Of a stretch of DNA of 64,000 nucleotides, positions 8,401 to 25,638 are shown piece by piece. The stretch spans positions 1 through 64,000 of the forward strand of contig CAWDTA010000004.1 of assembly GCA_963805085.1 (NCBI GenBank), in the 5' to 3' direction. This stretch comes from an uncultured Veillonellaceae bacterium. GTDB taxonomy: Bacteria; Bacillota; Negativicutes; JARBTT01. Position numbers and translations under genes: made by a program. The first letter of the stretch is position 1. Every line of letters begins with the position of its first letter. The notes under the pieces are model-generated. The model was not told the DNA's origin. It worked only from the letters and a program-made list of their open reading frames with translations, and searched no databases.

Positions 8401-8746
8401 TCTCTGAGAAACGAATAACCTTACTTTCTTTAGAAAAATAGCTATCCCATTCATCTTTAATCGTCTTCAGTACCGCTACAATATGCTTACACGCCCCGTT
8501 ATACTCATAAAAAGCAGGACAATCACAATTATAGCTTTTTATTTTGTTATGCTTATCAAACTCTATGGAAACGTCATAAAGTTCGCGTCCTAGAACTTGA
8601 GCCACAAATAAATTTTCATTCGAGAAGAATTCGATATCTTCTACATGGCCCGTCTCATAATAATAACAGCCCTTTTTATAAGACGAGCCCATAGCCGCTT
8701 GATGTTTTATGATATCTTCCGACAACATAGTATTACTCCCCTGCAC
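5441..8746 (-). CDS. SWIM zinc finger SNF2-family helicase
   Basis: CDCP..CKH SWIM motif, LADDMGLGKT, DEAQ and QATDRAYRIGQ helicase motifs. Confidence 0.95.
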   Translation of the reverse strand: MQGSNTMLSEDIIKHQAAMGSSYKKGCYYYETGHVEDIEFFSNENLFVAQVLGRELYDVSIEFDKHNKIKSYNCDCPAFYEYNGACKHIVAVLKTIKDEWDSYFSKESKVIRFSEKQMKPKVQLTRPAQEMLRFFMQKSEVLHSKISPDPIRLTPTYAFSIVSGQKKNSLKFLIGNERMYVVKHIPQLMEALETNRVLYYGKNFAFESQSMVFDTDSQQLVDMLYQSYVEEKQRSSWNYYASYGSAFSDARHYALTNRTLQQFFSCMAERAFDLEMNDEKIKGITIERGRPQLNLTLSHIKGGVRLALELAPGDVIYGLDTDFEYIYYQQKIYQVDAEFSQYIKPILNCFSAEHAVSVDIPESSASEFFSGMLPALEKISAVKLKSNVLAKYSRQSLEKAVYLDKLEGGMSARVEFRYGEKVLQFKDDKAQSEIIIDDKVLLRSTVEETQLLNLFRKYNFSWENGQLVQLDEEKVYLFLQEGLVELKDIAEVFYTDAFKNIRIKEGNSISAGVRLNTETDMLELSLNYEDISLKELMEILSAYKVKKRYHRLQNGAFIPLDSPEFEVSARLLTQLGVRSSDLQKKVIELPKYRALYLDSLARETGEFHMERSSAFKKMVQDIKEPEDVEYQVPDGIQGKLRGYQETGFKWLKSLASYGFGGILADDMGLGKTLQVLTFLLSEKTDKAEPSLVIAPTSLVYNWEEEVQKFAPSLRTLVVSGDPEERAAQLQEIDEVDLVVTSYALIKRDIEFYEKKKFLYCFLDEAQHVKNPNTLNAKTVKKIKAKNYFALTGTPIENTLTELWSIFDFIMPGYLQNHKTFTSKFEQPIVKNQDKQALSELSRHIKPFIMRRMKKAVLKELPEKVESKLSCEMTDEQTKLYTAWAMQARKELETEIAAHGFSRSQIKILALLTRLRQLCCHPSLFIEDYHGGSGKLEVFKEIIKEAVSGGHKVLVFSQFTGMLALIKEELVNMDISHYYLDGSTPAQDRIKLVHSFNSGAKDVFLISLKAGGTGLNLTGADTVIHYDPWWNPAVEDQATDRAYRIGQKNSVQVYKFIAKNTVEEKIYELQKKKREMIDSLIEPGETFLTKLNEDEIRKLFVL

Positions 8747-8979
8747 TATTAAATTTCTTAAAATTTACAATTTCATTATTATAACATAGTCAGAGAGTAA
8801 ATACGACAAGGACCCACCTCGCAGTCTTCAAATAAAGAAATACTCCAACAGATAAAGTCATGAATTAAATAATTTATCATACTCATTTATAATTGAATGA
8901 ATAAATCGGAAAATCACGCTTAGACTAGTTATAATAGCATTGATAGAAAACGTTTGATTATTAAGGGAGGTATTTACAG

Positions 8980-9483
8980 ATGAAAGAAATATTTGACAGA
9001 AGAAGCATCCGTAAGTTCAAAAATCAGTCTGTGGGGGCAGAGAAAATTGACCGTTTGCTCAGAGCAGCCATGCAGGCTCCTTCAGCCGCCAATCAACAGC
9101 CATGGGAATTTATCGTTGTGCAAGAAAAAGGCATGCTAGAGAAACTCTCGCAAGTCTCACCTTATGCCAAGCCAGCTGCACATTCAGCGGTTACCTTTGT
9201 ACTACTAGCAAATGAAAATGAACTAAAAGTACCTACTGCCTGGGAGCAAGATATGAGTGCTGCAGCTCAGAATCTATTGCTAGAAGCAGTTCATCTGGAA
9301 CTCGGAGGTGTATGGTTTGGAGTCGCAACAGCAGACTTTGTCGCCGAAAATGTACGCAGCTTATTTGATCTTCCTAATCACCTAAAACCATTTGCATTGA
9401 TTTCCGTAGGCTATCCTGATGGACAAAAAAATGAGTTCATTGACCGTTACAAGGCTGAAAAAGTACATGATGAAAAATGGTAA
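8980..9483 (+). CDS. Nitroreductase family protein
   Basis: RRSIRKF..APSAANQQPWEF. Confidence 0.92.
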   Translation: MKEIFDRRSIRKFKNQSVGAEKIDRLLRAAMQAPSAANQQPWEFIVVQEKGMLEKLSQVSPYAKPAAHSAVTFVLLANENELKVPTAWEQDMSAAAQNLLLEAVHLELGGVWFGVATADFVAENVRSLFDLPNHLKPFALISVGYPDGQKNEFIDRYKAEKVHDEKW

Positions 9484-9517
9484 TACCTCTCTTATTACTC
9501 CATGTTTAAAGAAATTA

Positions 9518-9574
9518 CAGGACGGTTCTATGTGCCCCAATATAAAAAGCAGACAATAGCACCGTCCTTCATCT
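9518..9574. repeat. Inverted pair of REP-like sites
   Basis: CAGGACGGTTCTATGTGCC (reverse orientation) and AGACAATAGCACCGTCCTTCATCT (forward). Confidence 0.65.
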
Positions 9575-9739
9575 GATGACCAAAACTATAACAGATTTTG
9601 CTTCTATCATGATGTCAGTAGGCTTGTGTCCTTGAGGTGCATGGTCAAATCTTTCAATAGATGCGACTCCAATAAGATCAATACCTGATTTTTTTGTTTT
9701 TAGCACGAATTCTGTTTTAATGCGAGATGATTGTAACAT
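9569..9739 (-). pseudogene. Epoxyqueuosine-reductase-like Fe-S protein, N-terminal fragment
   Basis: GIDLIGVASIERFDHAPQGHKPTDIMIEAKSVIVL with a GAGGAG RBS; the ORF ends inside the REP-like site. Confidence 0.65.
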
Positions 9740-9740
9740 A

Positions 9741-10331
9741 TCATCGTTCTCCTCGTCTTGTTGGATTACCACCATTATTGCTCTGCCCACGTCTATATTC
9801 ACTAGAGGAACAACCCATTTCAGCACGAAAAACAAGATAAAAACTAGATAAACTAGCAAATCCAACCTCCAATGAAATATCCATAATGCTCATTGTACTG
9901 CTATCTAATAGTTCAATTGCCTTCTCAATTCTAAGTGCGCTCAAATATTTTTTTGGTGTCCGACTAACGAACTTTTTAAACATGCGCTGAAAATGAGACG
10001 AACTGACATTTAAACGCAAAGGAAGTTCTCGTAATAATATCAGGTTAAAATATTCCTGTTTCATAATGTCACAAGCGGCCTTGACCAGCTCTAGCTCAGG
10101 CATATACTGCGCCCCTAAATCTGGTCGGCAACGTTTACATATACGGTATCCTTGCCGTAATGCATCGTCTAACGTAGTGAAGAAACTGACATTATTGCGA
10201 TTGGGGACCTTTGACTTGCAAGAAGGACGACATACTATACCAGTCGTTTTTACGGCGTAAAAAAAAGCACCATCATACTTACTGTCGCACTGCTTTACAG
10301 CTTTCCATTGCTCTTCTTTTAATAATACCAT
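9741..10331 (-). CDS. adaA: AdaA-type methylphosphotriester methyltransferase / AraC activator
   Basis: AVKTTGIVCRPSC..CKRC Ada zinc site plus an AraC HTH. Confidence 0.88.
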   Translation of the reverse strand: MVLLKEEQWKAVKQCDSKYDGAFFYAVKTTGIVCRPSCKSKVPNRNNVSFFTTLDDALRQGYRICKRCRPDLGAQYMPELELVKAACDIMKQEYFNLILLRELPLRLNVSSSHFQRMFKKFVSRTPKKYLSALRIEKAIELLDSSTMSIMDISLEVGFASLSSFYLVFRAEMGCSSSEYRRGQSNNGGNPTRRGER

Positions 10332-10399
10332 TACATATATCCTCCCATACAGTATTTAACCTCTGTTGAAAGTTATAGCTGCTCATCTATTTATATTTG

Positions 10400-11017
10400 T
10401 TATTCAGAAGATATCTGCCACAAATAAATAGAAGCAACAGACCCATACGGCGAGTATGTATTTTTATATTCAACAAACTGTTCTTGAGTAAGTTCGGAAA
10501 GGTTATATAATTTCATCATACCTCGTCTTATCGCGATATCTTTCCAACTTACAATGTTTGGCCGTTCCATTGAGTTGAGCAGTACCATTTCAGCTGTCCA
10601 TACACCAACTCCCTCCAAGGATGCTAGCCGACGAATGATTTCATCATCTGTCAAATGATAAAGTACGCTTATATCGAAATCTCTTTGTGATATTTTGTTT
10701 GCAATTTTATAAATATATTCAGCCTTGCGAGTTGTCGTACCACATTGTTGAACAGCTTGAGCTGAACCTTTCGAAATACTTTGCGGAGTAATTTCATTAA
10801 ATCGTTCTTGCATTCTGATCCAAATTGTATGAGCTGCTTTAACAGATATCTGTTGACCGATCATTGCGTAAATCAATGCTTGAAAAAGATCAGGGATAAC
10901 ACATCGTTCAACTTTGCCAAGTCTATGTATTGCTTCACCTAAAATTTTATCCACTTGTTTTAAATGAGAAATTTCTAGTGTACCATACTCAAAAATTTTG
11001 GTTTTAACATGCTGCAT
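10400..11017 (-). CDS. alkA: DNA-3-methyladenine glycosylase II (AlkA/HhH-GPD family)
   Basis: IGQQISVKAA and LEGVGVWTAEM HhH motifs. Confidence 0.82.
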   Translation of the reverse strand: MQHVKTKIFEYGTLEISHLKQVDKILGEAIHRLGKVERCVIPDLFQALIYAMIGQQISVKAAHTIWIRMQERFNEITPQSISKGSAQAVQQCGTTTRKAEYIYKIANKISQRDFDISVLYHLTDDEIIRRLASLEGVGVWTAEMVLLNSMERPNIVSWKDIAIRRGMMKLYNLSELTQEQFVEYKNTYSPYGSVASIYLWQISSE

Positions 11018-11474
11018 ATTTCTTTTCCAATTCTAAAAGCTTTTTCTTTACCTCTATTCCATTAATATACCCAACCAAACTGCCATCAACTCCTACGACA
11101 CGATGGCAAGGTATAAATATCGGAAGTGGGTTTTTATTATTAACCATCCCAACCGCACGATAGGCTTTGGGATTACCAATCTGCTTTGCTACATCCTTGT
11201 AACTACATATTTTTCCATAAGGGATCTCCTGTAATGTCTTCCATACCTTTTTTTGAAATTCTGTTCCTTGTGGTGAAAGTATTAAATCAAAGGATTTCCT
11301 ATTCCCACAAATATACTCTTGTAGCTGTAGGTTAGCTCCTTCTAATATACTCGTTTCCATTAATTTAACATCTTGATGGATGATTGTACCGAAGCATAAC
11401 CGTATAATCGCTGTACCATTTTCAACTAATCCTATTTTACCAATTGGAGTTTCATAATAATATGCATGATTCAC
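11004..11474 (-). CDS. ogt: Methylated-DNA--protein-cysteine methyltransferase
   Basis: IPCHRVV active site. Confidence 0.9.
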   Translation of the reverse strand: MNHAYYYETPIGKIGLVENGTAIIRLCFGTIIHQDVKLMETSILEGANLQLQEYICGNRKSFDLILSPQGTEFQKKVWKTLQEIPYGKICSYKDVAKQIGNPKAYRAVGMVNNKNPLPIFIPCHRVVGVDGSLVGYINGIEVKKKLLELEKKYAAC

Positions 11475-11594
11475 TCTGCCACCTCTTTATACATTGCTAT
11501 AGACCTAGTTTACTATACTGACTATTTATCGTCTTCCGAAAAATCACTTTCCAATTCAAAAAAACTATCTTTCAATTAAATTTATCAATTAACA

Positions 11595-11645
11595 GGCAAA
11601 ACTCCTGCTAAATTCATACAAAATTTAGCAGGAGTTTTGCTTTTT
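11595..11645. terminator. Hairpin AAAACTCCTGC..GCAGGAGTTTT, repeated at about 13093-13139
   Basis: Near-identical stem and AAATTCATACAAA loop in both copies. Confidence 0.7.
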
Positions 11646-11873
11646 ATTATTTATAAAACGTCGTTCACTATTTCATTAACCTGATCAATAAGAGGAAGAT
11701 TATATATATTAACTTCCTCTTGTCACTTGACTAGCACCTATTCTTTCCGTCTATTCATTGGAATTTTGATTAAAACTGTGACCAACTTGAAAAGTTTATT
11801 GAAATGCTCAAACATTTCAACGGTCATAAGTAAAAATACCACAAGAAATAAGTGAAGGTACAACTGGCAGGTA

Positions 11874-12206
11874 TCAGCTGCTGGTTGTACCTTCTGGATC
11901 GAAATATTTCCGATCAAACCTCATAAAATCCCGCTTTTTGGGTTTGATTCCCATCTCTAATAGTTCCTTGTCTAATCTCGCATAGGTAATGTCTCTATAC
12001 TCCTCAAAAGAAAAACCGTTAATTATTCCAGTGACATAACCAATCAGTGACAGATCATATATCGCAATTTTCTCTTGCCGTCTGACCAGCGCATATTCTT
12101 TGCTATTCAAATCTGTAATCAATTCAACTGTAATTTCAGCGTCCTCTAGTTCCGTAGCCGGAGCAGCTATAATCGTATCTTGCGTTGTTCTGTAGGTTCT
12201 ATACAT
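11874..12206 (-). CDS. Hypothetical protein
   Basis: ORF of 110-118 aa; likely start ATG 12206 after GAGG. No family recognised. Confidence 0.6.
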   Translation of the reverse strand: MYRTYRTTQDTIIAAPATELEDAEITVELITDLNSKEYALVRRQEKIAIYDLSLIGYVTGIINGFSFEEYRDITYARLDKELLEMGIKPKKRDFMRFDRKYFDPEGTTSS

Positions 12207-12312
12207 TTCCAGAACCTCTATTTCTCCCATTGGTTGTGGCGAGGATGGCTCCCCGCCACATGCTGCTCAGCTGCCTTGACCACAACTTTTTACTGCCTTG
12301 TACTGATACCAA
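12199..12312 (-). CDS. Putative 37-aa leader ORF overlapping the start of the downstream gene
   Basis: GGAGG RBS, TTG start, and a stop overlapping the next ATG region (AATGTATAG). Confidence 0.35.
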   Translation of the reverse strand: MVSVQGSKKLWSRQLSSMWRGAILATTNGRNRGSGNV

Positions 12313-12562
12313 TTTATATCCCTCCATCATCATCCTGCACGTGGTTTCTTCTATCCGCTCATGCAGATAGAAAAAACCAACATACAGTTTGTTTCAGGAG
12401 AAATTAAAAAAGCGCATGCGAGGTTATTCCAACCTACACATGCGCTATGCTTCATCTTGATTGCATGCAGACGCTAAGCCTTCTGCCAAAACTTCAATCG
12501 TATTATACCAGGCGAACGGACTATCACCCTTGTAATCAAGGGAAAAGCACGGTATAATAAAT

Positions 12563-12657
12563 TGTCGTCGTAGACAGCTAGCTGTTACGTGTAGGTGCCA
12601 CAACACCTGCTCGTGCCTGTGAGTGTTCCAGCACTCTCAGGACACGGCGACTTTTTT
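12563..12657 (+). ncRNA. Structured sRNA resembling phage C4/CI antisense RNAs
   Basis: TTGTAA-17-TATAAT promoter at 12530-12558; closing stem GTCGTCGT/ACGGCGAC followed by T6; hairpins GGTGCCACAACACC and GAGTGTTCCAGCACTC. Confidence 0.65.
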
Positions 12658-12857
12658 AATTTCCACCTATTATTAGTATATTACATTTCTTGGGGATTGC
12701 AAGCAAAAGTAGGCTAAAACATGATTTTTTATTGTGAAAATTGTGTTTTTTTTTTGTTTTTTTAATTTATCACTAGGGTGGTAGGCTCTTTTTTGTTATG
12801 GTAATGTTTGCAAAAATCTGCTAATAAAAATTAATAATTTTTGATAAAAGCAATATG

Positions 12858-12903
12858 GACGAATCGCAAGGAAGTTTTGAGCCTTCCTTGCGATTCGTCT
12901 TTT
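12858..12903 (+). terminator. Intrinsic terminator-like hairpin
   Basis: GACGAATCGCAAGGAAG..CTTCCTTGCGATTCGTC followed by TTTT. Confidence 0.65.
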
Positions 12904-12951
12904 ACTGATTTGTCGATTTTATTGATAACTTAGCTTTTTTAGCATAAATTT

Positions 12952-12981
12952 GTAGACAAAAGTACGCGTCACCCTGTCTAC
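12952..12981 (+). repeat. REP-like site (best-preserved copy)
   Basis: GTAGACAAAAGTACGCGTCACCCTGTCTAC, with a 7-bp terminal stem and 5' GTAG. Confidence 0.8.
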
Positions 12982-13265
12982 CAGTGATTCCATCTTGTTG
13001 CTTTTTCCTAAGACAGTACCCCCGACACTTCGCCCGCCTCAACCTGCCATCAAAATTTTGACTATTAAACCTATATATTCTCATAAACGCTCAAAACTCC
13101 TGCCAAATTCATACAAATTCCAGCAGGAGTTTCTTTTTTGATCATACTATTGATCGACACGTTACTATTTATCCTTGCACTATTTTGACATTATTTGTTA
13201 TAATGCAAATAGGTGCTACGATAACGGTAGGCGGCTTACCTTCCCCACAGAAATGGGGTGAGCAT

Positions 13266-13337
13266 ATGGGAACTCTGGAGCTTTATGTATTACTAATACT
13301 TGCTACAGGTTACATTATCGCAATAAAAAAGAGATAA
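13266..13337 (+). CDS. Type I toxin peptide, copy 1 (MGTLELYVLLILATGYIIAIKKR)
   Basis: 23-aa hydrophobic peptide with a basic tail; promoter TTGCAC-18-TATAAT at 13175-13204; SD held in a CCCCA/TGGGG hairpin. Confidence 0.8.
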   Translation: MGTLELYVLLILATGYIIAIKKR

Positions 13338-13431
13338 CCGCCCCAATCCTGCAAGATTTAGCGGTTAAACTCTTTTGAATTAATCTCTATATTTTTGTCA
13401 GGTGAACCGTCTATCGGTAGCACCTTTTATA
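13325..13431 (-). ncRNA. Antisense antitoxin RNA, copy 1
   Basis: Minus-strand TTGACA-17-TATGAT promoter (13466-13438) and a TAACCGC..GCGGTTA terminator with a T-tract. Confidence 0.75.
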
Positions 13432-13498
13432 TTGTTTATCATAAACCAAATGTTATACATTGTCAACAGCTGGAAGCAAACGCTTGACAGGCAAAAGT

Positions 13499-13770
13499 GG
13501 CAAGCAGCCCGAGAGATTCTCGCCCTCAGGCTCTCTCAGGGCCGGACTTGAACCTCTCGATTCATCCGGCTCCCATCATCCAACCGTTGGAAAAATTCCA
13601 GACGGTTTTGTTTTGCTCATAGGCTCCTCCCTATCGGTTGACCAGTGTTCAAGACTAGATAACACAGTCCCTTTGCTCCATTCCCATTACGAATTTTCAT
13701 TACTACTACGAACTGTTCCATCCCTATACCCTGCATCTGTACTTTCGTCCTTGCGGGTTCTCCTTTTATA
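13499..13770 (-). mobile_element. Group II intron 3' half with the RT ORF deleted
   Basis: GTTCGTAGTAGTAATGAA..GTAATGGGAATGGAGCAAAGG, then GGGAGGAGCCTATGAGCAAAACAAAACCG (start of the RT ORF) joined to D5 GAGCCGGATGAATCGAGAGGTTCAAGTCCGG and D6. Confidence 0.85.
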
Positions 13771-13997
13771 ACCTGTCCCCATGTAATTCTATTATAGAAT
13801 ATCCAAGATACAGAGATTTTTTCACACACCCTCTGCACCACTAGTTCTTAAGGGGGACTAGGTTACAGCTTGCGTAGTTTTTTATTAGCAGCTGGCATTA
13901 TCATTCTGTTATAGCCGATTGTAATAGGAATAAATTGCGGTCATCGCCTTTGGGTTTATACTATTGGTCAACGTATTAAAATTTATATATCGTTAAA

Positions 13998-15896
13998 TCA
14001 ATAATCAGTATCACTGGTTGATGCAAATGGTATTGTTAAAGCACTTCGAATCATGACTTCAAATGGAGCTGCAGGTGCACCAGTAATGTCTCTAATAAAT
14101 GGTTTAGGTGCATTCTCCCAGTTGTATCTAATTCGTGCACCTCTTGTAATAGTGCATCCAAATGGTAATTCAACACTGATTTCATTTTCATTTACTGTAT
14201 ACGTCAATAATTTTATTGAACGAGTATCATCAATTAATTCAAAGAAACCATTTGCATTGCCAGATAACGTTACTCCAAAAGTCTGGAACTTAATAACTAT
14301 TTGATTTTTCATTTGATATGCATATATTGCTAAAGGCCCATTACAATATCCGTTATGATAGCCATTTATATTTTTAAACGCTTTTGCTAATGCAATCGCA
14401 ACATCTTTTTTCCGTGTTGGATGTAAGTCATCATCTTCGCCCATTTCAAGAGAAACAATCATTGCGGTATCGTTTATCAATAATCCTTTTTTTTGTTCTT
14501 CTCTTAATCGTGCCCAATCATGCTCAGGGTCAATGTCATAATTCGGAAGTTGGACAAAAAGAAATGGAAGGTATGGTTGATTAAATATTTTACGCCATTC
14601 TTGAATCATATTCGTAAATATTGATCCATAATATTCTGGATTTCCAGTGTCGCTTTCACCTTGGTACCATAAAATGCCTGTCAATGGAATTCGTCTAAGA
14701 GGATGTATCATTCCGTTAAATAAACCAATTGGTTTGTATTGAAGAAATAGCTGTGACTTTCTCTCCGGAAGCCAGCTCCCACGCTTAATTGCCCATAAGC
14801 CGAGAGTATCAACATCTAGAATTTCATCTTTGGTAACGATTAAATGCTGCTTGGTTTTTCTGATACCTCCTGGGGAATTATAAATTTTTAAACGGATTAC
14901 CATTTCAAATTCTTTTTTTAGTATTCCCAATGGATAGTTACGTGGTAGATACTGATGATCTGTTGATCCTATTTTTTTACCATTTATAAAAATATCATCA
15001 CTATCAATAAGTGTGCCGAAACGAAGTTCTCCTTCATAACCAACCATTGAATTTGGAATAGTTATTCGTTTTCTCAACCATATTACTCCTGGTGTACAAT
15101 ATTTATTAGGCCATGCTTGATTGAGCTTAACATGATCCCAAGAAGTATCATCAAATTCAGTATGCATCCAACATTCCGAAAGCCCGTCATCAACTTTTTC
15201 ACAATAATTTTGATATTGTTGCTGATAAATAGTATCGTTTTTTTCAATTAATTCAATATAACTATCATTTCTTAAACAATCAAAATTATTCGGCAAAAGA
15301 CCTAAATTTAATAATGTTTCGTGACTAACCCAACTTTTAATAGGTGAGCCACCAACTGCTGTCGACACTAATCCGATTGGTATATGCTTTTCTTTATACT
15401 GCTGTTTTGCAAAAAAATATCCTATACCTGAAAGTGTTTCTAAATCTTTTCCAATAGCGCTTTTCCATTGTCCGCCAGTTAATTCGTTCTGAGGTTTTTT
15501 AAAATCAAATTGTTCTGGAACTTCAAAAAAATGAATTAAAGAATTATCAGCTTGAGTGATTTCGTTTGGATATTCGGCTCTTAATTGGTTCATGCATAAT
15601 TCCATATTAGATTGACCACCCAAAAGCCAAACGTCGCCAAACAAGATATTACGAATCGTTATTTCTTCTTTGGCTGTAAAAATTTTGATGTCAACAGGTC
15701 CGCCTGCTTTATGCGGTGGAAGAGTAAATTCAAAATATCCTGTGATGCATTCTGCCTGTACAGCCAATGTAGTGTTTTCATAAGAAATTTCAACTCGATT
15801 ATTAGGCAGTGCATATCCCCAAAAGCTGATTGGCTTATTTTGCTGCAAAATAGCACCATCGCGTAATAAATATGGAATGAATAATGCTTTTGACAT
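13998..15896 (-). CDS. Sialate O-acetylesterase family (SASA) carbohydrate esterase
   Basis: GDVWLLGGQSNME, GILWYQGESD and DLHP motifs. Confidence 0.88.
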   Translation of the reverse strand: MSKALFIPYLLRDGAILQQNKPISFWGYALPNNRVEISYENTTLAVQAECITGYFEFTLPPHKAGGPVDIKIFTAKEEITIRNILFGDVWLLGGQSNMELCMNQLRAEYPNEITQADNSLIHFFEVPEQFDFKKPQNELTGGQWKSAIGKDLETLSGIGYFFAKQQYKEKHIPIGLVSTAVGGSPIKSWVSHETLLNLGLLPNNFDCLRNDSYIELIEKNDTIYQQQYQNYCEKVDDGLSECWMHTEFDDTSWDHVKLNQAWPNKYCTPGVIWLRKRITIPNSMVGYEGELRFGTLIDSDDIFINGKKIGSTDHQYLPRNYPLGILKKEFEMVIRLKIYNSPGGIRKTKQHLIVTKDEILDVDTLGLWAIKRGSWLPERKSQLFLQYKPIGLFNGMIHPLRRIPLTGILWYQGESDTGNPEYYGSIFTNMIQEWRKIFNQPYLPFLFVQLPNYDIDPEHDWARLREEQKKGLLINDTAMIVSLEMGEDDDLHPTRKKDVAIALAKAFKNINGYHNGYCNGPLAIYAYQMKNQIVIKFQTFGVTLSGNANGFFELIDDTRSIKLLTYTVNENEISVELPFGCTITRGARIRYNWENAPKPFIRDITGAPAAPFEVMIRSALTIPFASTSDTDY

Positions 15897-16040
15897 GATT
15901 ATCTTCTCCTTATTCAAACTTCTTAATATTATTTATTATATTTTATGTATGGCAATATATATTGAATAACCGATCTTTAAATATACCCACATACTAAATT
16001 AGAAAGTCACATTCTATACGATACATATTATTTATTTCAT

Positions 16041-16380
16041 TTATGTAAGTCTGAACAGATACGCATTGGCAGTTTTGCTCGTAATTTTAGATGTCATAAA
16101 CGCATTTGAATTGGATTTGGCATATACCAAATTGAAATATAAGTTTTCAGCTACAGTCGTACCTAATCCGATTGTATAGTAGTCTACGTAGTCACTAGGC
16201 AGTTGATGCTCTAGTACGTTTCCTCCAATACGATAATAGCCCAGTTGCAATTCGGTTGTTTTGCTTAGAGGAGCATCAATTACTAAAGACTGGTTGTTTT
16301 GCGATTGTTACTGTGCTGGTATTGTCATAGGTAGAAGTCGCTTTGCTAGCCTCCAAAGTTGCTTTTACTTTTTTAAATTT
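16041..16380 (-). pseudogene. Possible outer-membrane porin remnant
   Basis: Amphipathic beta-strand pattern (LQLGYY, YYTIGLG, LYFNLVY, AYLFRL) broken by frameshifts. Confidence 0.35.
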
Positions 16381-16428
16381 TTTATAATACTGCGATACGA
16401 AAAATGATAGGTGTTTAATTGCTATTGT

Positions 16429-16586
16429 AAACGTGCTCGGACACATTTATTATACGTTATAATAATACAGATTTTATTCAGCGTCAATAGTCATTTTCAG
16501 ATTTGCGAAAAGATTAAGAAAATTTGTTATTGACAAAAAAATCTAATAATGTTATTTTTATGCTAAGATTGATGTGCTTGAGCACA
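16429..16586. promoter_or_regulatory. Divergent sigma-A promoters with two related palindromic operators
   Basis: Rightward TTGACA-17-TATTTT (16530-16558) and leftward TTGACG-17-TATTAT; operators CGTGCTCGGACACA (16432-16445) and TGTGCTTGAGCACA (16573-16586). Confidence 0.6.
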
Positions 16587-16828
16587 ATTAATGTATGAGG
16601 AGCGTGTGAAAATGTTAATGGTTTAAAAATTTGATAGCTCTGCTATCTGCGAAGGATTCCATTATGGTAATGCAACATGTCTAAAGGTGTTGTTCAATAT
16701 ATTCCAGTATCGTGGAAGAGACAATGCCGTTTCTACACAAATAAAAGTTTATCCTATAAAAGCCTATTTGTATAAGGCAAAAATATAAATTTATTACTGG
16801 TAATTTATATAATTAGGAGGCACAAAGA

Positions 16829-18280
16829 ATGAATGTAGATATTAGAAAAAAGGTTAATGGGCGAACTAAGATTAGTAAATATATTCAAGGACAATTTTCG
16901 GAACATTTGGGTCGCGGAATATATGAAGGTATTTGGGTTGGAAAGCACAGTAAGATTTCAAACACAAATGGGATGCGTAATGATGTTGTTGCTGCATTGA
17001 AAAAAATTAATGTACCAGTGTTGAGATGGCCTGGAGGCAGCTTTGCTGATGAATACCATTGGGAAGATGGTATCGGTCCTAATGATCAGAGACGTAAAAT
17101 TGTTAATCATAGTTGGGGCGGTGTTGTAGAAGATAATTCCTTTGGAACACATGAGTATTTTGAACTTTGCCGACAACTTGGGTGCGATTCTTATGTTAAT
17201 GTAAACCTTGGAAGCGGTACTATACGGGAAATGTCTGATTGGATTGAATATATGACATCTTCAGGCGAATCAACTATGGCACAATTGAGGGCAAAAAATG
17301 GTCATCCGGCTCCTTGGAAAGTTAAATTTTTAGGTATGGGCAATGAAGCATGGCTCGGTGGTGGAAGCATGCGGCCTGAATATTATGCTGATGTTTACCG
17401 TAGATTTCAAACATATATTCCAGAATACAATGGCCCAATTTATAAAATAGCTAGCGGACCAAGTGTCGATGATTATCATTGGACAGATATTGTTATGAAA
17501 AATACAAGAGGATATTTAAATGGATTAAGTCTGCACCATTATGCCATGACAGATGTTTGGGAAAAGAAAGGCGAAGCGGTTGATTTTCAAAAGGATGAAT
17601 GGGGACGCATGTTATACAATGCACGCAGGATGGATGATTTAATTGCAAACCATTTGACGCATATGGGTCAGTATGATCCGAATCATACGACTGACTTGAT
17701 TGTAGATGAATGGGGAACATGGTTAAAGGCTGAAAAAGGGACTAATCCAGCTTTTTTATATCAACAAAATACAATTAGAGATGCAATTGTAGCTGCAACA
17801 ACACTCAATATTTTTAGCAAGTATGCTGAGCATATAAAAATGACTAATATAGCACAAATGGTTAACGTATTGCAGGCAATGATTATTACATATGAGGATC
17901 AAATGGTTTTAACTCCAACTTATTATGTTTTTGATATGTATAAATATCATCAAGATGCAATATTGGTTGATGCATTTAGTAATAATGGAGAGGATATAAA
18001 TTACACTATCTCAATGAAAAATAACGAATATATCATTTCTGTTTGCAATACTAGTATAGTTGAGGAACATAATATAACAATAACATTTGGGAACAGTATT
18101 CAAAGTCCAACATATTCAAAATGGATTCATAGTAATATTATGAATAAACATAATACATTTGATAATCCAAATAATATTTTTGAAGAAGATTTTAATCATT
18201 TTACAGTTAAGGATACCGAATTATTTATTCGTAGTGATAAAATGAGTGTGATCACTATAAAAATACCAATTACTGCATAG
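16829..18280 (+). CDS. abfA: GH51 alpha-L-arabinofuranosidase
   Basis: GQFSEHLGRGIYEG, LRWPGGSFAD, GNE and VDEWGTW motifs. Confidence 0.92.
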   Translation: MNVDIRKKVNGRTKISKYIQGQFSEHLGRGIYEGIWVGKHSKISNTNGMRNDVVAALKKINVPVLRWPGGSFADEYHWEDGIGPNDQRRKIVNHSWGGVVEDNSFGTHEYFELCRQLGCDSYVNVNLGSGTIREMSDWIEYMTSSGESTMAQLRAKNGHPAPWKVKFLGMGNEAWLGGGSMRPEYYADVYRRFQTYIPEYNGPIYKIASGPSVDDYHWTDIVMKNTRGYLNGLSLHHYAMTDVWEKKGEAVDFQKDEWGRMLYNARRMDDLIANHLTHMGQYDPNHTTDLIVDEWGTWLKAEKGTNPAFLYQQNTIRDAIVAATTLNIFSKYAEHIKMTNIAQMVNVLQAMIITYEDQMVLTPTYYVFDMYKYHQDAILVDAFSNNGEDINYTISMKNNEYIISVCNTSIVEEHNITITFGNSIQSPTYSKWIHSNIMNKHNTFDNPNNIFEEDFNHFTVKDTELFIRSDKMSVITIKIPITA

Positions 18281-18340
18281 GCAATAATGGCATTGCTGGA
18301 TGGATATGATGTTTTTTTGATAATATTGGGAGGAATAAAA

Positions 18341-19732
18341 GTGAAAACTAGTGTAGAAGTTTCACAATTGTTTAATGTTCAAAAACTTCATTTTAGTGAA
18401 AAATTAGGTTACGGTATTGGAGTTAGTGCAGTTAATCTTATATATAATGTCATAAGCACGTACTTACTGTTTTTTTATACTAACGTTTATGGCTTAAAAC
18501 CTGCAGATGCAGCAACAATGTTTTTGTTTGTCAGAATTATTGATGCTGTCGCAAGTCCGATTTATGGAACGTGGGTAGATAAAAGAACTACAAAGTATGG
18601 AAAATATAGGGGCTACTTATTGTATTTGTCAATTCCTTATGCAGTTCTGTCAATTTTGTGTTTTTATTCTCCGGATGCTAGTTATGCTATTAAATTAGTT
18701 TATGCCTATTCAACTTACATAGGATTATCGTTGCTTAATACTTTCTTGTCACCACTAGGGGCTATGCCAGCGGCAATGACAAGAGACAATAATGAAATTG
18801 CAGAAGTTAATGCATATGGTATTTTTTGTTCTAATGTAGGCGGTATGCTAATTTCATTTGGAGTTCCACTTTTAGTTACGCAGATTTCAGGAGCTTATAC
18901 TGGTGCTGATGCTCAAAGTGGATGGTTTTTTACAATGAGCATATTTGCAATAGTTGGACTAATCGGATTATTGCTGGGTTTTAAGCTTTTAGAGGAACAT
19001 TATTATATGTCTATTGAAGCAACACAATCTGTATCATTTAAGGATATTTTCGTACAAATACATGAAAATAAACCATTTGCTATTCTTTTGATCTATTTAG
19101 TGATTGCTTTCATATTTATGACAATTGTCAATTCTGTTGGCTCATACTATGTTACTTACAACATGAATAAACCGTATTTATTAAAATATTTCAATTTATT
19201 GGCAACATTACCATCTTTTATATTAGTGCCACTGTTCCCGTGGTTTAAACGTCGTCTGGGTAGAAAAGGGCTTATGTTGGGTTTTAGTGTAGTGCTGATT
19301 TTAGGTTTAGTAATTATGTATATGAGCAACCCAGAAAATATCCCTTTAGTAATGGTTGGTAAATTATTAACTTCAGTTGGAATGATTGTCATAACTGGAT
19401 ATATGTGGGCCTTTCAAACAGAAGCTGTTAACTATGGTGAATGGAAGACTGGAAAACGGGAAAATGCAATTATTAGTTCAGTTTGTTCATTTACTGTAGC
19501 AGCGGGAATGGCTATTGGCGGAGTAATTCCAGGGTACATTTTAAATTGGATCGGTTTTGACGCTAGCATTGCAATGCAATCGGCTACAACTTTGCAAGGG
19601 ATTACAATGATGCAGTCGATTATACCAACGATATTCATCATACTTGGCATGATTGTTTTTGCTTTTTATCCGATAACAGATCAAAGTATGAATCAAATGA
19701 GTAAGGAAATTGATGACCGTAGGGCGAGATGA
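18341..19732 (+). CDS. MFS glycoside-pentoside-hexuronide:cation symporter
   Basis: DKRTTKYGKYRGYLL and YGEWKTGKRE motifs; GTG start after GGAGG. Confidence 0.9.
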   Translation: MKTSVEVSQLFNVQKLHFSEKLGYGIGVSAVNLIYNVISTYLLFFYTNVYGLKPADAATMFLFVRIIDAVASPIYGTWVDKRTTKYGKYRGYLLYLSIPYAVLSILCFYSPDASYAIKLVYAYSTYIGLSLLNTFLSPLGAMPAAMTRDNNEIAEVNAYGIFCSNVGGMLISFGVPLLVTQISGAYTGADAQSGWFFTMSIFAIVGLIGLLLGFKLLEEHYYMSIEATQSVSFKDIFVQIHENKPFAILLIYLVIAFIFMTIVNSVGSYYVTYNMNKPYLLKYFNLLATLPSFILVPLFPWFKRRLGRKGLMLGFSVVLILGLVIMYMSNPENIPLVMVGKLLTSVGMIVITGYMWAFQTEAVNYGEWKTGKRENAIISSVCSFTVAAGMAIGGVIPGYILNWIGFDASIAMQSATTLQGITMMQSIIPTIFIILGMIVFAFYPITDQSMNQMSKEIDDRRAR

Positions 19733-19741
19733 GTTATAAAA

Positions 19742-19775
19742 ACAGGGCTGGAAATTCGATTTCCAGCCCTATTTT
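19742..19775 (+). terminator. Intrinsic terminator
   Basis: AGGGCTGGAAAT-TCG-ATTTCCAGCCCT followed by ATTTT. Confidence 0.75.
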
Positions 19776-19829
19776 AAAATTGGAGGAACTTATTTGTGGA
19801 ATATCAAATAACATATACGAACCCAATTA

Positions 19830-20101
19830 TACAGGGGCTCTATCCAGATCCGTCCATTTGTTTTGTTGGTAAATATTTCTACCTTGCGGGTTGCTTCCAA
19901 GTTTATTCGTCTCCATTGGCACTTACCTGATGAAATCTCGTTCCACCTTTTCCCGTAACGCTCACTACCATGGCTTTTGACCACAACAACTTACGGTGGT
20001 TTGAAGCCTCCACCTGTATGGCGACTTCGGAGGGCCTTCTTCCATATTTAGTTAAGCATAGGGTGTGGACGCTAAAACATTCACACTCTTTCGTGGCACA
20101 C
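19830..20101 (-). mobile_element. Group II intron 5' part (domain I)
   Basis: Begins GTGTGCCACGAAAG and contains GGCCCTCCGAAG..CTTCAAACCACCG..GGTCAAAAGC..GTAGTGAGCGTTACGG..AAAGGTGGAACGAGATTTC, which I recall from bacterial class D/E-like introns. Confidence 0.8.
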
Positions 20102-20229
20102 ACGCGTCATCTTGTCTAATTAACAATTCCATTTTATTTTACTTCACTTAATTTTCCATATATTTAAAAACAAAAAAAATCCGACACCGATACATTTTAT
20201 TGTACCAGTGCCGATTTTTATCATTTAAG

Positions 20230-20655
20230 CTATTGCTGCTGTACGGAGGATGAGCCGTATTGCCCTTGTTGCTGTGATTGCCACGGTTGTTGCGTTCCAT
20301 ATTGATTCCATCCCGCTTGATTATTTGTACTATTACTTTTTAGACTTTGGATTGCCCCTGACACTTCATTCATTTTATGCTGGATTGAGTTTAAAACATA
20401 TGAAGACATCTCTAAACGTTCATTGATCGCATGATCGAAGAACTGCGTAGATTGAGATACTTGATTAGCCATATTTCTGATGTTTTGAATTGATCCGATA
20501 GCGTTCTGGATATTTCCAGAATTGATAGCCATGACAGCGTTGTCGCAAGTTGAAACAATGTCTTGCGATAGGGTTTTAGCTTTGTTGACCTCAGTTATTA
20601 ATGTTTGTCCATGGCTTACAGCGTGTTGCAAAAAAGGATTTGTTTGTTGATACAA
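20230..20655 (-). CDS. Q/N-rich hypothetical protein
   Basis: 141-aa ORF with an AGGAGG RBS, TTG start and a downstream terminator-like hairpin. Confidence 0.7.
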   Translation of the reverse strand: MYQQTNPFLQHAVSHGQTLITEVNKAKTLSQDIVSTCDNAVMAINSGNIQNAIGSIQNIRNMANQVSQSTQFFDHAINERLEMSSYVLNSIQHKMNEVSGAIQSLKSNSTNNQAGWNQYGTQQPWQSQQQGQYGSSSVQQQ

Positions 20656-20744
20656 TATATTCGCCTCCTAAAATATTATAAGATAGTAATTCCTATTTTA
20701 ACGGATTTTTATTCGTAATCTATGACGATTTTTAACACAAAAAT

Positions 20745-20850
20745 AAAAACCACTCGTCCAACGGGTAGTTTGAACTGAGGCTGTAAGCCCCTATTACTAG
20801 CCAGCGTCTAAAGGCACTGGCTTTCACTTTGTTCAAGCTACTGTGGTTTT
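20745..20850. mobile_element. IS200/IS605-family end remnant
   Basis: AAACCACTCGTCCAACGGGTAGTTT and GCCAGCGTCTAAAGGCACTGGC hairpins, which I recall as Firmicute IS200 ends. Confidence 0.55.
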
Positions 20851-20968
20851 GTCAATTTTTTCCACCCATCAAGGGATGGAACTTATCGATCAGCTAATAG
20901 CTATGCCTTTTTGCTCGTAATATTGACAATTGAATTTTCGAGACTCTCTCTCCTAGGTTTGATTCCCT

Positions 20969-21155
20969 GCTTTATGTATTACTAATACTTGCTACAGGTT
21001 ACATTATCGCAATAAAAAAAGGGATAACCGCCCAGTCCTGCAAGATTTAGCGGTTAAACTCTTTTGATTTAATCTCTATATTTTTGTCAGGTGAGCCGTC
21101 TATCGGTAGCAGCTTTTATATTGTTTATCACAAATCAAATGCTATACATTGTCAG
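20969..21155 (+). pseudogene. Type I TA module copy 2, 5'-truncated
   Basis: Matches copy 1 from codon 6 onward. No toxin promoter, SD or start; antitoxin promoter degenerate (CTGACA/TGTGAT). Confidence 0.8.
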
Positions 21156-21177
21156 CAACTGGAAACAATCGCTTGAC

Positions 21178-21203
21178 AGACAAAAGTACTCGCCCCTTTG
21201 TAT
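21178..21203 (+). repeat. REP-like site
   Basis: AGACAAAAGTACTCGCCCCTTTGTAT. Confidence 0.65.
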
Positions 21204-21442
21204 ATATATCCATCATCGTTGTGGGAATATCTAATATTTTAAGTCTAACTCTTTCATTTTTAAAGTACGCTAATTCTACAATATCCATAAATTCTCATTT
21301 GTGCTTTTAGTACAGAACATTCTTACTGGTATTGCCCCTACTATAGAAATCCCCTACTCCTAATCTAGTACTATCACTTTTGGGGGTTAGCATATTTTAC
21401 TTCTTTACTTGAGGTTTCCATTTAATAAAATTCAAAAAAATA

Positions 21443-21499
21443 TTGCTACAAAAAAAGTAGCATGCTATAATATCGGTAGCATGCTACTTTTTTTGTAGC
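21443..21499 (+). promoter_or_regulatory. Promoter overlapped by two GCTAC-N7-GTAGC operators (likely for the HxlR regulator)
   Basis: TTGCTA-17-TATAAT; TGCTACAAAAAAAGTAGCA and TGCTACTTTTTTTGTAGC. Confidence 0.7.
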
Positions 21500-21537
21500 G
21501 TGCACATTAAATATACATATTAGAAAGAGGTGCGGTT

Positions 21538-21732
21538 ATGCCAGTAATTACGATGAAAATGAAAAAAACTCAGCCAGAAAAGAAAAAGGAATTGATTGAG
21601 AAATTAACTTCTGCAGCTGTTGAAGTTACCAATTCTCCAGCAAGTGCTTTCACTGTCTTTATTGAGGAATATGAGCCTGATAGTATTGGTATCGGTGGGC
21701 AGACATTGATTGAAAAATTAGCTAACAAATAA
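21538..21732 (+). CDS. 4-oxalocrotonate tautomerase family protein
   Basis: 64 aa with the N-terminal catalytic Pro and a GIGG motif. Confidence 0.9.
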   Translation: MPVITMKMKKTQPEKKKELIEKLTSAAVEVTNSPASAFTVFIEEYEPDSIGIGGQTLIEKLANK

Positions 21733-21825
21733 GATAAAAATACTTAAGTTCCTCGCTTTTCTATGACGAGCGAGGAACGTTTGACAAAATTTATATTGAA
21801 AGATATTTCTTAAGGAGGATTTACT

Positions 21826-22176
21826 ATGTCAGTTCCATGTCCAGGTAAACCAGTTAGAGGATCCAAATCTGGTGTTCCAATTATGGCTCTCTTTGATCTT
21901 TTAGGTAATAATTGGTCAATGGGTATCATTTGGAATTTACAGAAAGGCTCTTCTACCTTCAGAGAACTTCAGAAACGATGTGAGTCAATCTCTCCTACAA
22001 TATTAAACACCCGTATCAAGGAGCTTAGAGAAGCCGATATCGTAGAGCGTACTAATGATGGTTACCAATTAACTACGCGGGGAAAAGCGCTCATGGAGTT
22101 GTTGCGTCCATTTGGGGAGTGGTCACGTGCTTGGTCAGAAGAGGTATTCAACTATTCAAAAACACTCGACAATTAA
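21826..22176 (+). CDS. HxlR family regulator
   Basis: LFDLLGNNWSMGII..FRELQ..ISPTILNTRIKEL. Confidence 0.9.
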   Translation: MSVPCPGKPVRGSKSGVPIMALFDLLGNNWSMGIIWNLQKGSSTFRELQKRCESISPTILNTRIKELREADIVERTNDGYQLTTRGKALMELLRPFGEWSRAWSEEVFNYSKTLDN

Positions 22177-22286
22177 ATATGCTCTTGTAAAATGATATGA
22201 TTATAAAAACAAATTACGTCATACAGAATATGGTATATGGCTAATTTTACAGTCTATAGCTTTTATAAAAGAAAGGATAAATTTGA

Positions 22287-23099
22287 ATGAGTTTGCTTAA
22301 TGTGAATAATGAAAAATGTATTGGCTGCGGCATTTGTGCTGAGGTTTGTCCAAAGAATTATATTGGAATGACTGGGGAAAGGATTCCGATTGATGCTGGA
22401 CTTACCTGTATCGCCTGTGGTCACTGTGTTGCTGTCTGTCCCAAATCGGCATTAGATCATGCTCACGCGTCTCTTAACGGTCAAGTTTTGTTAGATAAGA
22501 CTCCGGTTTTGAATGCTGAGACGGCGGAAAGTTTTCTTCGGGCCAGACGTTCTACACGGGTGTATAAAAAAGACGCAGTTCCAAAAAACAAAATTCTAAA
22601 GCTACTAGATATTGCCAGATTAGCCCCTACAGGTAATAATACCCAAGGCGTGCAGTACTTGATTATAGATAATAAGAATACGCTACAGGCTATTACCAAA
22701 GCTACGGTAGCCTGGATGGATGAAGCAATTTCCCAAGGGGAACCATCGGCAGCTTCTTTTTCCGATTTAGTGGGACACTATCATAAAACAGGGCTAGATG
22801 TTATTTTGCGAAATGCACCATGCTTTATCCTAGCACTGTCCGAGAAAAGTTTTACGCGTGGGCGTGATAACACCCATTTTTCTCTTGCGTATGCCGAATT
22901 GTTTGCATCAAGTCTTGAATTAGGAACGTGCTATGCAGGCCTTGTCGAGGCATGTGCTAGGTCTGGCTATCAGCCGTTGCTTAAAGTATTGGACATTCCA
23001 GAAGAGTTAATAGTCACTGGCGGGATTATCGTTGGTTATCCTAAATACACTTATAAACGACTAGTAGATCGGTCTCAATTGAAAGTAACTTGGCGTTAA
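22287..23099 (+). CDS. Nitroreductase with N-terminal 4Fe-4S dicluster
   Basis: Two CxxCxxCxxxCP motifs and RRSTR. Confidence 0.92.
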   Translation: MSLLNVNNEKCIGCGICAEVCPKNYIGMTGERIPIDAGLTCIACGHCVAVCPKSALDHAHASLNGQVLLDKTPVLNAETAESFLRARRSTRVYKKDAVPKNKILKLLDIARLAPTGNNTQGVQYLIIDNKNTLQAITKATVAWMDEAISQGEPSAASFSDLVGHYHKTGLDVILRNAPCFILALSEKSFTRGRDNTHFSLAYAELFASSLELGTCYAGLVEACARSGYQPLLKVLDIPEELIVTGGIIVGYPKYTYKRLVDRSQLKVTWR

Positions 23100-24198: not shown

Positions 24199-25638
24199 TG
24201 ATCTGACCCCAAAAAGTTAGACAAAAAATGAATTATGCAACTAATGAGGATTGAATCCTGTATCGCACAGGGCTCAGTCCTTTTAGTTTGCTCTTAATTC
24301 GTTTATTGTTGTAGTAGTCTATATATTTTTCTAGTTCAACTTTAAATTCCTCTATAGAGCTAAACTTTCGCAAGTATAAAAGTTCTGACTTAAGTAGCCC
24401 AAAGAAATTTTCCATAATTGAATTGTCTAAGCAGTTTCCTTTTCGAGACATACTTTGGATTATTCCTTTATCTCTGAGCCTTTTTTTGATAATGTTTGTG
24501 CTGATATTGCCATCCTTGATCAGAATGAAATATAAGATTTGTATCAGTTGGAATCTTTGCAAAAGCTTTATCTAACATATCCATCACTTGCCCTAATATA
24601 GGTCTTTCGCTAATGTTATAACTTATAATTTCACTATTATACATATCCAATATCGGCGATAAATATAATTTAGTGCCAAACAACGAAAACTCCGTTACAT
24701 CTGTTGTCCATTTCTGATTTGGTGCATCAGCTTTAAAATTTCTCTGAATAAGGTTCGGGGCAATTTTCCCTGTTTCACCCTTGTAAGAACGATATTTTTT
24801 GACTCTTACCATACATTTAATTTTCAATGCGTTCATTAAACGTTGTACTGTCTTATGATTGATTTTATGGCCTATATTCGTTAATTCCATTATAATTCTA
24901 CGATATCCATATCTACCTTGATTTTCATGATAAATGGCTATAATTTAATCTTTGATTGTTTTATATTTATCAGGTTCATTCGATTTTTTCAAATAATAAT
25001 AGTATGTGCTGCGTGGTATCTTAACTAGCTCTAATAATGCTGTCAGTTTATATTTCTGCCTTAATTTGGTTATGACAGCTACTTTATCGGCTTCTCCGAT
25101 TTTTCCCGCTTTTGAATTAAGGCATTCAATTTTTTTAGGTATTCATTCTCCATACGAAGTCTCTGGACTTCTAATAAAAGCTCTTCATTATTTTCGATGT
25201 TCTTACGTTCTTTTTTAATTCCCATTTTACTTGACCTTCCTCTGCGTTCTTCATACAGAGCAGCCTTGCCTTTTTCGTAATAAATACGCTCCCATGTGCT
25301 TATAGATGGATGAGATGGAATATTAAAATGTGCAGCAGTCTGGCGAATTGATGCTCCTGTATTATGCATATATTCTACGACAGAAACTTTAAAATCGCCA
25401 GTATAAGTTCTATGAGTTGTACAAAGACCATCAATACCATGTTCTTTGTAAGCTCCTACCCATTTTTGAATATCACTTTTATGTACATGATACTCATTAG
25501 AAAGTGAATTGAATCCAATATCACCTTTTAGATAGTGTTGTACTATTTTCATCTTTAATTCTGTAGTATATATTTTCTTTGGCATAAAAATACCCCTTTC
25601 ATTAGACTTTTTTTGTCTAACAAAAGGGGTTCACTTCA
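24199..25638 (-). mobile_element. IS3-family (IS150-like) element with inactivated orfB
   Basis: Ends TGATCTGACCCC.. and ..GGGGTTCACTTCA; orfA 25079-25585; orfB ([21 protein letters not shown]) is broken by a stop near 24945 and a frameshift in the T-run near 24481. No target duplication seen. Confidence 0.92.

Follow-up and report, generated by a model that had tools for sequence, protein, structure and literature searches.

Positions 13499 to 20101 of the window (the whole stretch of DNA analysed, 64,000 nucleotides, C4:1-64000) hold the two ends of a group II intron with 6.1 kb of sugar-utilisation DNA between them. We conclude, at a probability of about 0.6, that these ends are the remains of one intron of the B.th.I3-like lineage, a fossil that was later split when genes for a carbohydrate esterase, a GH51-type arabinofuranosidase and a symporter were inserted into it at the DNA level. 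The insert is ordinary chromosomal DNA and not intron-borne cargo, since it is single-copy and since a related locus on a metagenome contig (L097) has the same genes outside any intron. The source genome (G000; 4.2 Mb, 37% G+C, five contigs) is 83% complete with 6% contamination. All intron features of the window lie on the minus strand, and positions within the intron are given in nucleotides (nt) of C2a, a paralog at C2:641631-640611 (L178). The intron is preserved in the following pieces, the last of which is what is left of the reverse transcriptase (RT)/maturase open reading frame (ORF):

20101-19898, minus strand: intron 5′ piece, C2a nt 1-204, 90.2% identical to C2a/C2b (C2:641631-641427); it begins with GTGTG and carries domain I up to the end of its 5′ half.
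13763-13593, minus strand: intron 3′ piece, first part, C2a nt 398-568, 90.6% identical to C2a and 93.0% to C2b.
13597-13499, minus strand: intron 3′ piece, second part, C2a nt 923-1021, 88.9% identical to C2a and 89.9% to C2b.
13499-13763, minus strand: the 3′ piece as a whole, containing the 3′ part of domain II, domain III, the beginning of domain IV, where the ORF remnant lies, and domains D5 and D6.
13576-13620, minus strand: RT/maturase ORF remnant of 14 codons, translated as MSKTKPSGIFPTVG and then a stop.

We defined the limits of the two pieces by family models and by paralogs. GTGTG at 20101-20097 (minus strand) is the intron 5′ end, a GUGYG start that comes with conserved domain I motifs. 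The Rfam family RF01999 (group-II-D1D4-2) matched 20043-19925 with 108.2 bits (gathering score 36), and at relaxed thresholds RF00029 (D5/D6) matched 13574-13491 with 37.7 bits (E 1.1e-4), below its gathering score of 40. BLAST against the genome identified three further copies of the intron: C2a, C2b (C2:~1596335-1598198; L177) and a more distant copy at C5:835010 to the contig end (C5 copy; L179). Similarity to the paralogs ends at 20101 and at 13499, where the sequence reads ...TAGACAAGATGACGCGT / GTGTGCCACGAAAG... and ...GGGCTGCTTGCC / ACTTTTGCCTGTC..., respectively (slash, intron boundary). The Rfam matches and these limits bear out the original prediction that the ends lie on the same strand in the right order. 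A family profile built from five full-length members detected exactly three pieces, collinear and all on the same strand (profile positions 1-210, 390-578 and 1775-1875; E-values 1e-48 (1.1e-48), 9e-40 and 1e-25) and, across 13300-20300 at E up to 100, nothing beyond them, linkers included. The two halves might have belonged to different intron lineages, a possibility raised with the original prediction; we found that both match the same paralogs and one profile, and that their divergence from the paralogs is alike (5′ piece, 90.2%; 3′ piece, 88.9-93.0%).

The DNA on either side of the intron ends, ...CAGGCAAAAGT and ACGCGTCATCTTGTCTA, forms the two halves of one 27-nt palindromic site, which reads AGACAAAAGTACGCGTCACCTTGTCTA on the plus strand. 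In intron sense the halves are:

20102-20118, minus strand: 5′-exon half-site, TAGACAAGATGACGCGT.
13486-13498, minus strand: 3′-exon half-site, ACTTTTGCCTGTC, which aligns with 27606-27632 and 21178-21204.

Excising 13499-20101 restores the site with neither gap nor duplication, as anticipated from the sequence and as expected of a precise insertion, and the restored site occurs intact at four other places (12954-12980, 21178-21204, 27606-27632 and C1:18015-18041). The left flank 13280-13498 has a 91% identical paralog, 20969-21187, that extends into an intact site, and the same holds for the copy at 27570-27632. The 17-nt 5′-exon half has nine matches in the genome at up to two mismatches, two of which adjoin an intron 5′ end (that of the window and, at C2:641632-641648, that of C2a). 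There is exactly one orphan half-site on the left and one on the right. The site had been termed REP-like (REP, repetitive extragenic palindrome). The genome has up to 14 matches to it at up to five mismatches, and its inverted repeat is weak, with 7 bp around a 14-nt loop (ΔG −3.2 to −4.4 kcal/mol, z −1.1 to −1.6), so that the label is generous. The insertion point lies within the 14-nt loop. That both halves derive from one insertion is thus the simplest reading: they are of the same lineage, on one strand and in order, and they abut complementary half-sites.

The interrupted site ends a repeated module (13168-13485; 93–94% identical to G004 and to L097 17297-17788) that looks, from its sequence features, like a type I toxin-antitoxin unit. 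It carries an ORF of 23 aa at 13266-13337 (plus strand), hydrophobic and preceded by a ribosome-binding site, with no match to a Pfam family; such ORFs are 23-24 aa long and end in KK(R). A convergent sigma-70-like promoter (11/12 matches) is present at 13466-13438 (minus strand). Copies of the toxin-antitoxin-like module were found at 13168-13498, with paralogs at 20969-21187 and 27323-27632, at L097 17297-17788 and 6870-7001, and, at 93% identity, in G004, a genome of a different family.

We determined what the intron has lost by aligning the region upstream of the ORF in C2a, C2b and four full-length plasmid relatives (H1, H2, H3 and H5). These relatives came from a search that matched 621 records, in 21 of which 80% or more of the query was covered. 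In the RNAalifold consensus structure of these six members, compensatory changes occur at 65 of the 145 pairs; the structure includes:

Alignment columns 61-76 and 366-383: domain I basal helix.
Alignment columns 387-398 and 452-462: domain II helix.
Alignment columns 469-523: domain III.

The segment absent from the window, C2a nt 205-397 (~190 nt), corresponds to alignment columns 227-421. Both partners are lost in 30 of the 145 pairs and one partner in 43, so that 72 remain. Domain I has lost its 3′ half, with the 3′ strand of the basal helix, and domain II its 5′ strand; the loops homologous to the exon-binding sites EBS1 and EBS2 fall in the absent segment, leaving domain I incomplete. 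The break sits in domain I/II and not in domain IV, which retains just the 14-codon remnant of an RT ORF that had rightly been described as mostly deleted. D5 is degenerate, again as described: D5/D6 scores 37.7 bits in the window against 51.3 and 52.0 in the paralogs (~14 bits lower), and CCGGCCC stands where the paralogs have CCGGTTC, giving an A·C mismatch at the catalytic triad. We predict from these alignments that the window RNA cannot fold into an active intron. With core pairs, EBS loops and the ORF lost and a low D5/D6 score, the intron is dead.

These losses weigh heavily on the proposal that the sugar genes travel as cargo, by retrohoming, in a group II intron that is functional or mobilised in trans, to which we give almost no credence. 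The correct order and orientation of the ends around the genes and the restorable target would suit such an element, but the insert interrupts domain I/II, ~190 nt of core including the exon-binding loops are lost, and D5 is degenerate, so the ORF-less intron enclosing cargo that had been envisaged does not hold. Nor does the genome contain an intact RT of this subfamily, C2b being frameshifted and C2a truncated. The genes are encoded on both strands and have a terminator of their own, and a further terminator (20214-20181) precedes the 5′ splice site by ~80 nt. The original prediction had itself staked cargo mobility on finding intron plus cargo at another locus, and here it fails: the intron-plus-insert unit was not found in the 40 relatives searched and has no second locus in its own genome, the insert is single-copy, and the same genes lie outside an intron in a 97% identical relative. 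We draw from the broken ribozyme core and the chromosomal position of the genes in that close relative a general caution, that ordered intron ends around genes and a restorable target do not make a cargo-carrying intron.

The insert (13764-19897) has no second copy in the genome and is not distinctive in G+C. Its parts are:

13764-13828: left linker (x1), which holds half of a second REP-like element, with GGGGACAGG at 13780-13772 (minus strand).
13829-19781: sugar-utilisation locus (K), 97.2% identical to L097.
13998-15917, minus strand: 639-aa carbohydrate esterase (SASA; PF03629, E 1.7e-25).
16829-18280, plus strand: 483-aa GH51-type alpha-L-arabinofuranosidase (PF06964, E 3.7e-37; NF051901, E 2.4e-51, below the curated cut-off), 47–61% identical to its best species-representative relatives.
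18287-19732, plus strand: 481-aa glycoside-pentoside-hexuronide:cation symporter (GPH/MFS_2; PF13347, E 1.1e-92; TIGR00792, 359 bits against a cut-off of 231).
19782-19875: right linker (x2), unique, with no other genome copy and absent from L097.
19876-19897, minus strand: intron nt ~394-418 repeated, in short and imperfect form, at the right junction, with the core AACCCGCAAGG.

The esterase, GH51 and MFS symporter genes were correctly named from the sequence, as was the REP-like motif at the left junction; the possible porin remnant (15918-16828) found no backing, as this segment has no Pfam match at E up to 1 and is unlike the neighbouring proteins. A stem-loop 3′ of the symporter gene reads as a two-way, terminator-like element. 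Relatives of the GH51 protein in species-representative genomes number 233, and the best 80 of the 233 are 46–61% identical and include neither a donor nor a case of close synteny. Pairwise alignments of the right linker (19782-19897) to the intron are weak (20/500, 30/500, 29/1000 and 6/1000 shuffles reach the score), and we did not accept this linker as decayed intron because the five-member profile is silent there at E up to 100. A 50-nt motif across the left linker/locus boundary (13785-13835) occurs twice in the unrelated genome G013 (80–86% identity), where no intron or other Rfam family adjoins it.

L097 carries a close counterpart of the insert. Window positions 13818-19781 correspond to L097 7002-12953 at 97.2% identity, the homology beginning near 13818-13828 and stopping at 19781; the GH51 proteins are 99% identical, and the neighbouring SNF2 gene is 91% identical. 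Between the ends of the homology and the window intron pieces lie 65 nt and 116 nt, the two unique linkers. The order of features in L097 is:

6744-6824: partial ~940-bp repeat module and a diverged palindromic site.
6823-6869: 47-nt intron relic, equivalent to window 19898-19944 (nt 158-204), 91.5% identical, in the same orientation.
Next: small toxin-like ORF with a terminator.
7002-12953: sugar locus.
13090-14260: full ~940-bp repeat module.
14281-17250, minus strand: gene for a 989-aa KAP-family P-loop NTPase.
17297-17788: toxin-antitoxin-like module without the palindrome.

The sugar locus thus lies on the opposite side of the same repeat modules and outside any intron, with the intron relic 130 nt to its left. 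L097 gave no Rfam intron match at the gathering score, and BLAST of L097 returned nothing matching 13499-13763 or 19945-20101. The two modules flanking its KAP NTPase gene adjoin each other in the window (12979/12993).

We also compared 11500-22500 at the DNA level with 41 genomes, one of them of the same genus (fragmented, 84% complete). Partial matches were obtained in 23 of the 41, to repeat modules, to a 141-aa gene or to short conserved pieces; none of these matches was to the sugar locus or the junctions. Four public sequencing runs (X1-X4) each contain a small share of the stretch (0.08-0.16) in short contigs, so that the parts they leave uncovered are not evidence. Contigs of X1 (left of 13828) and X2 (right of 19782) have loose ends that resemble the L097 flanks; contigs of X3 (19366-19881) and X4 (13798-13981) follow the window linkers. 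No contig of these runs extends across an intron/linker junction or across the insert.

From these data we infer an order of events and a recombination mechanism. The intron would first have retrohomed, in minus orientation, into the loop of the 27-nt palindrome that ends the toxin-antitoxin-like module. This copy would then have decayed, its RT ORF shrinking to 14 codons, D5 acquiring substitutions and ~190 nt (nt 205-393) being lost. The 6.1 kb, comprising three genes and two linkers, would have entered last, between intron nt 204 and ~398, at the DNA level, by insertion or recombination in a repeat-rich region and not by reverse splicing. A direct repeat is present at both junctions (13743-13759 and 19876-19892; 15/17 identical, 88%), with an 11-nt exact core, AACCCGCAAGG, from intron nt ~401-418. 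Entry at a ~20-nt intron segment would have duplicated that segment, imperfectly, at both junctions, and could have taken place by short-homology recombination or by templated insertion. The intron pieces would now be inert markers that neither fold, splice nor move, and the sugar genes would run from their own signals. Homing before the arrival of the genes was also the order preferred in the original prediction, and it fits the evidence. If so, the surviving intron ends provide a marker by which rearrangements in this repeat-rich accessory region could be dated.

We favour one insertion that was later split because the pieces are complementary, the orphan half-sites single and the divergence equal. 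Several observations weigh against it. We found no orthologous empty site or uninterrupted copy, the sole same-genus genome breaking at this point, and the L097 copy of the module lacks the palindrome. The ~20-nt overlap (nt ~394-418 in both pieces) would also be expected from two separate intron copies. The L097 relic ends at the same nt 204 and on the other side of the sugar genes, which requires at least one more rearrangement between the two genomes. Finally, the junctions 13763/13764 and 19897/19898 are without independent read support, as the contigs reach only 13798 and 19881.

The overlap leads to the most serious rival, which we consider unlikely: two intron copies in the same orientation would have occupied two palindromic sites flanking the locus, and deletions would then have trimmed the right copy from its 3′ end and the left copy from its 5′ end, taking the adjoining half-site each time. 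Besides the presence of intron nt ~394-418 in both pieces, this history would account for the flanking of the L097 locus on both sides by site-bearing modules, with the relic on the left, where the window has the 3′ piece. Intron copies do recombine in this genome, C2a combining the first 38 nt and 5′ exon of the window type with a C2b-type body, and when the right linker was aligned pairwise, with gaps allowed, to the ORF region of the intron, only 6 of 1,000 shuffles attained the score. Against this, at least two deletions would have had to leave pieces that almost exactly complement each other (nt 1-204 with ~394-418 on the one hand, nt ~394 to the 3′ end on the other) and exactly one orphan left and one orphan right half-site. 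Neither linker gives a profile signal at E up to 100, and the pieces are equally diverged from the paralogs.

An assembly artefact, in which the contig was misjoined through short intron repeats, is highly improbable. The completeness and contamination of the genome leave room for one (83% and 6%), contigs end inside introns (at window position 1 and at the end of C5), and the intron/linker junctions are outside the contigs of the runs. The shared pieces, at just 204 and 265 nt and ~90% identity, are nevertheless too short to mislead a five-contig, 4.2-Mb assembly, and the X3 (19366-19881) and X4 (13798-13981) contigs back the joins of linker to locus.

Within the history of a single split intron, a more far-reaching possibility, which we put forward tentatively and hold to be doubtful, is that intron relics act as portable homology patches that shuffle an accessory arabinan/xylan-utilisation cassette among repeated toxin-antitoxin-like modules, the cassette having entered the fossil by recombination through the ~20-nt intron-derived segment. 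If this is the case, the duplicated AACCCGCAAGG core at both junctions would be explained, and the 47-nt relic in L097 would be what this process left behind in a sister lineage.

The window intron belongs to the B.th.I3-like ('B-like class') lineage. C2a is 1021 nt long and lacks most of its ORF; C2b (1.87 kb) has a near-complete, frameshifted RT ORF with a 380-aa open stretch and the YADD motif (TIGR04416, 396.7 bits). RTs of this family are ~415-420 aa long, without an endonuclease domain. C2b is 67.8% identical over 98% of its length to a copy on a Bacillus thuringiensis plasmid and 71.8% identical to one on a Clostridium pasteurianum plasmid. The homology runs over the whole intron (67–72% over 98–100% of C2b) and is accompanied by a shared covarying structure. 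Tourasse and Kolsto (PMC2504315) group B.th.I3 of B. thuringiensis israelensis with M.a.I5, UA.I3 and P.l.I2 as a 'B-like class' that makes twintrons and homes into RYADD codons of RT genes. All five copies that we examined at their targets (the C5 copy and four plasmid copies) are inserted one base after the Y(A/V)DD codons of an RT gene; the target of the B. thuringiensis copy is AGGTATGCTGATGACT. The C5 copy, a distant member, is nested in a twintron-like manner after the RYADD codons of another RT gene and is cut by the contig end. The window copy did not home to RYADD, its 5′ exon (...AAGATGACGCGT) lying in a non-coding palindrome. The window copy and C2a have left the RYADD niche for an extragenic palindrome, and a lineage that homes into RYADD codons of other retroelements thus has members here in extragenic palindromes.

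The loops at the exon-binding positions differ correspondingly. Members of the RYADD type pair loop and 5′ exon as AGTCGT/ATGACT and GCGTA/TATGC; C2a has AACTTG at the EBS2 position, which pairs at six of six positions with CAAGTT of its own 5′ exon. C2b is located after CCTGTC in a member of the GGGGACAGG repeat family. The EBS1-position loop of C2a/C2b contains GACAGG, complementary to CCTGTC, and AACTTG at the EBS2 position can pair with CAGGTT. Six CAGGTTNCCTGTC sites complementary to the C2a/C2b loops are present in the genome, all of them empty. The second, genuinely REP-like family, gggacaaGGGGACAGGttnnCTGTCCCact, has 54 copies of its 9-mer core (GGGGACAGG), with fewer than ten expected by a rough hand estimate from base composition; one copy holds C2b, another lies at the C2a 3′ boundary and half of one at the left junction of the insert. 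These sequence complementarities suggest that a sub-lineage was retargeted from RT genes to REPs, and C2a looks like a recombinant of two sub-lineages. A candidate EBS1, ACGTGGC at C2a nt 330, was dropped as it pairs with the intron 5′ end in the minimum free energy fold.

The family in this genome and its B.th.I3 relatives have in common the 5′ GTGYGCCACGAA, D5, a domain layout that shows covariation, an RT of ~415-420 aa without an endonuclease domain and, in the C5 copy, insertion one base after RYADD. They differ in that the window copy and C2a lie in a palindromic intergenic repeat and not in an RT gene, in that the C2a/C2b loops at the EBS1/EBS2 positions are unlike the RYADD type, and in that a 6.1-kb insert divides the window copy, from which the ORF and ~190 nt of domains I/II are gone.

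Class C introns, as presented in one account (PMC4424553), target terminators and attC motifs, S.ma.I2 being an example, and the original prediction had taken the targeting of attC by class C introns as the parallel. There are common features: intergenic insertion at an inverted-repeat motif, an RT without an endonuclease domain, and GsI-IIC as the closest solved RT (E 1.2e-37), narrowly ahead of a IIB RT (E 7.7e-35). The parallel is nonetheless weak. This intron is of the B.th.I3-like family, which has an EBS2-type loop, sequence-specific homing sites and ~540 nt of RNA upstream of the ORF. We rejected membership of class C (IIC), as insertion is in the 14-nt loop of a 7-bp repeat and not after a stem-loop, and as an EBS2-type loop exists.

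According to PMC2504315, bacterial group II introns are commonly broken up by rearrangement; the paper cites a compilation of fragmented and truncated copies by Dai and Zimmerly. Like the fragments treated there, and like the RmInt1 remnants of PMC4181065, the window intron is a decayed, non-mobile remnant in intergenic or repeat DNA that was broken by rearrangement; it differs in that both ends persist in order around a 6-kb gene block and mark the original target. Fragmentation is therefore a known and common outcome, and what is unusual here is how readable the history is. In Pseudomonas putida KT2440, two of nine group II intron copies are associated with REPs, as tabulated in PMC1525189. 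That case also has a group II intron at repeated extragenic palindromes, in another phylum, with another intron and repeat family and with no gene block inside.

Split, trans-spliced group II introns of organelles keep all parts of the core and join coding exons. They resemble the window intron in having two halves parted by other genes through DNA rearrangement, whereas in the window the core is lost and the 'exons' are non-coding half-sites.

The region around the intron contains further repeats. The ~940-bp repeat, at 11850-12797 in the window, encodes a 118-aa ORF (11874-12230, minus strand) of no known family; it has about seven copies in the genome at 79–87% identity and occurs in the other-family genomes G004, G006, G027 and G034 at 72–84%. 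In G004 it is joined directly to the toxin-antitoxin-like module. Perfect inverted repeats of 17 bp and 23 bp form stem-loops in the intergenic repeat region at 12858-12899 and 21445-21499, the former belonging to the repeated module that adjoins the palindromic site. The ~140 nt at 20737-20878 match at least six contigs of the distant genome G038 at 82% and are not a tRNA. No tRNA gene was found within the window, and the idea of tRNA-linked integration modules was dropped.

A second, unrelated D5/D6 (RF00029, 52.7 bits) lies on the minus strand at window positions 1-75 and ends exactly at the contig start. We saw no RT ORF next to it on the minus strand of 76-3000, and this intron may be truncated or lack an ORF, or may itself have caused the contig to break there. 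Pieces of an IS3-type transposase (rve and HTH domains) are present at 24468-25585 and 25782-26845, and beside them is an MraW/RsmH methyltransferase gene, broken into two ORFs of 193 and 158 aa.

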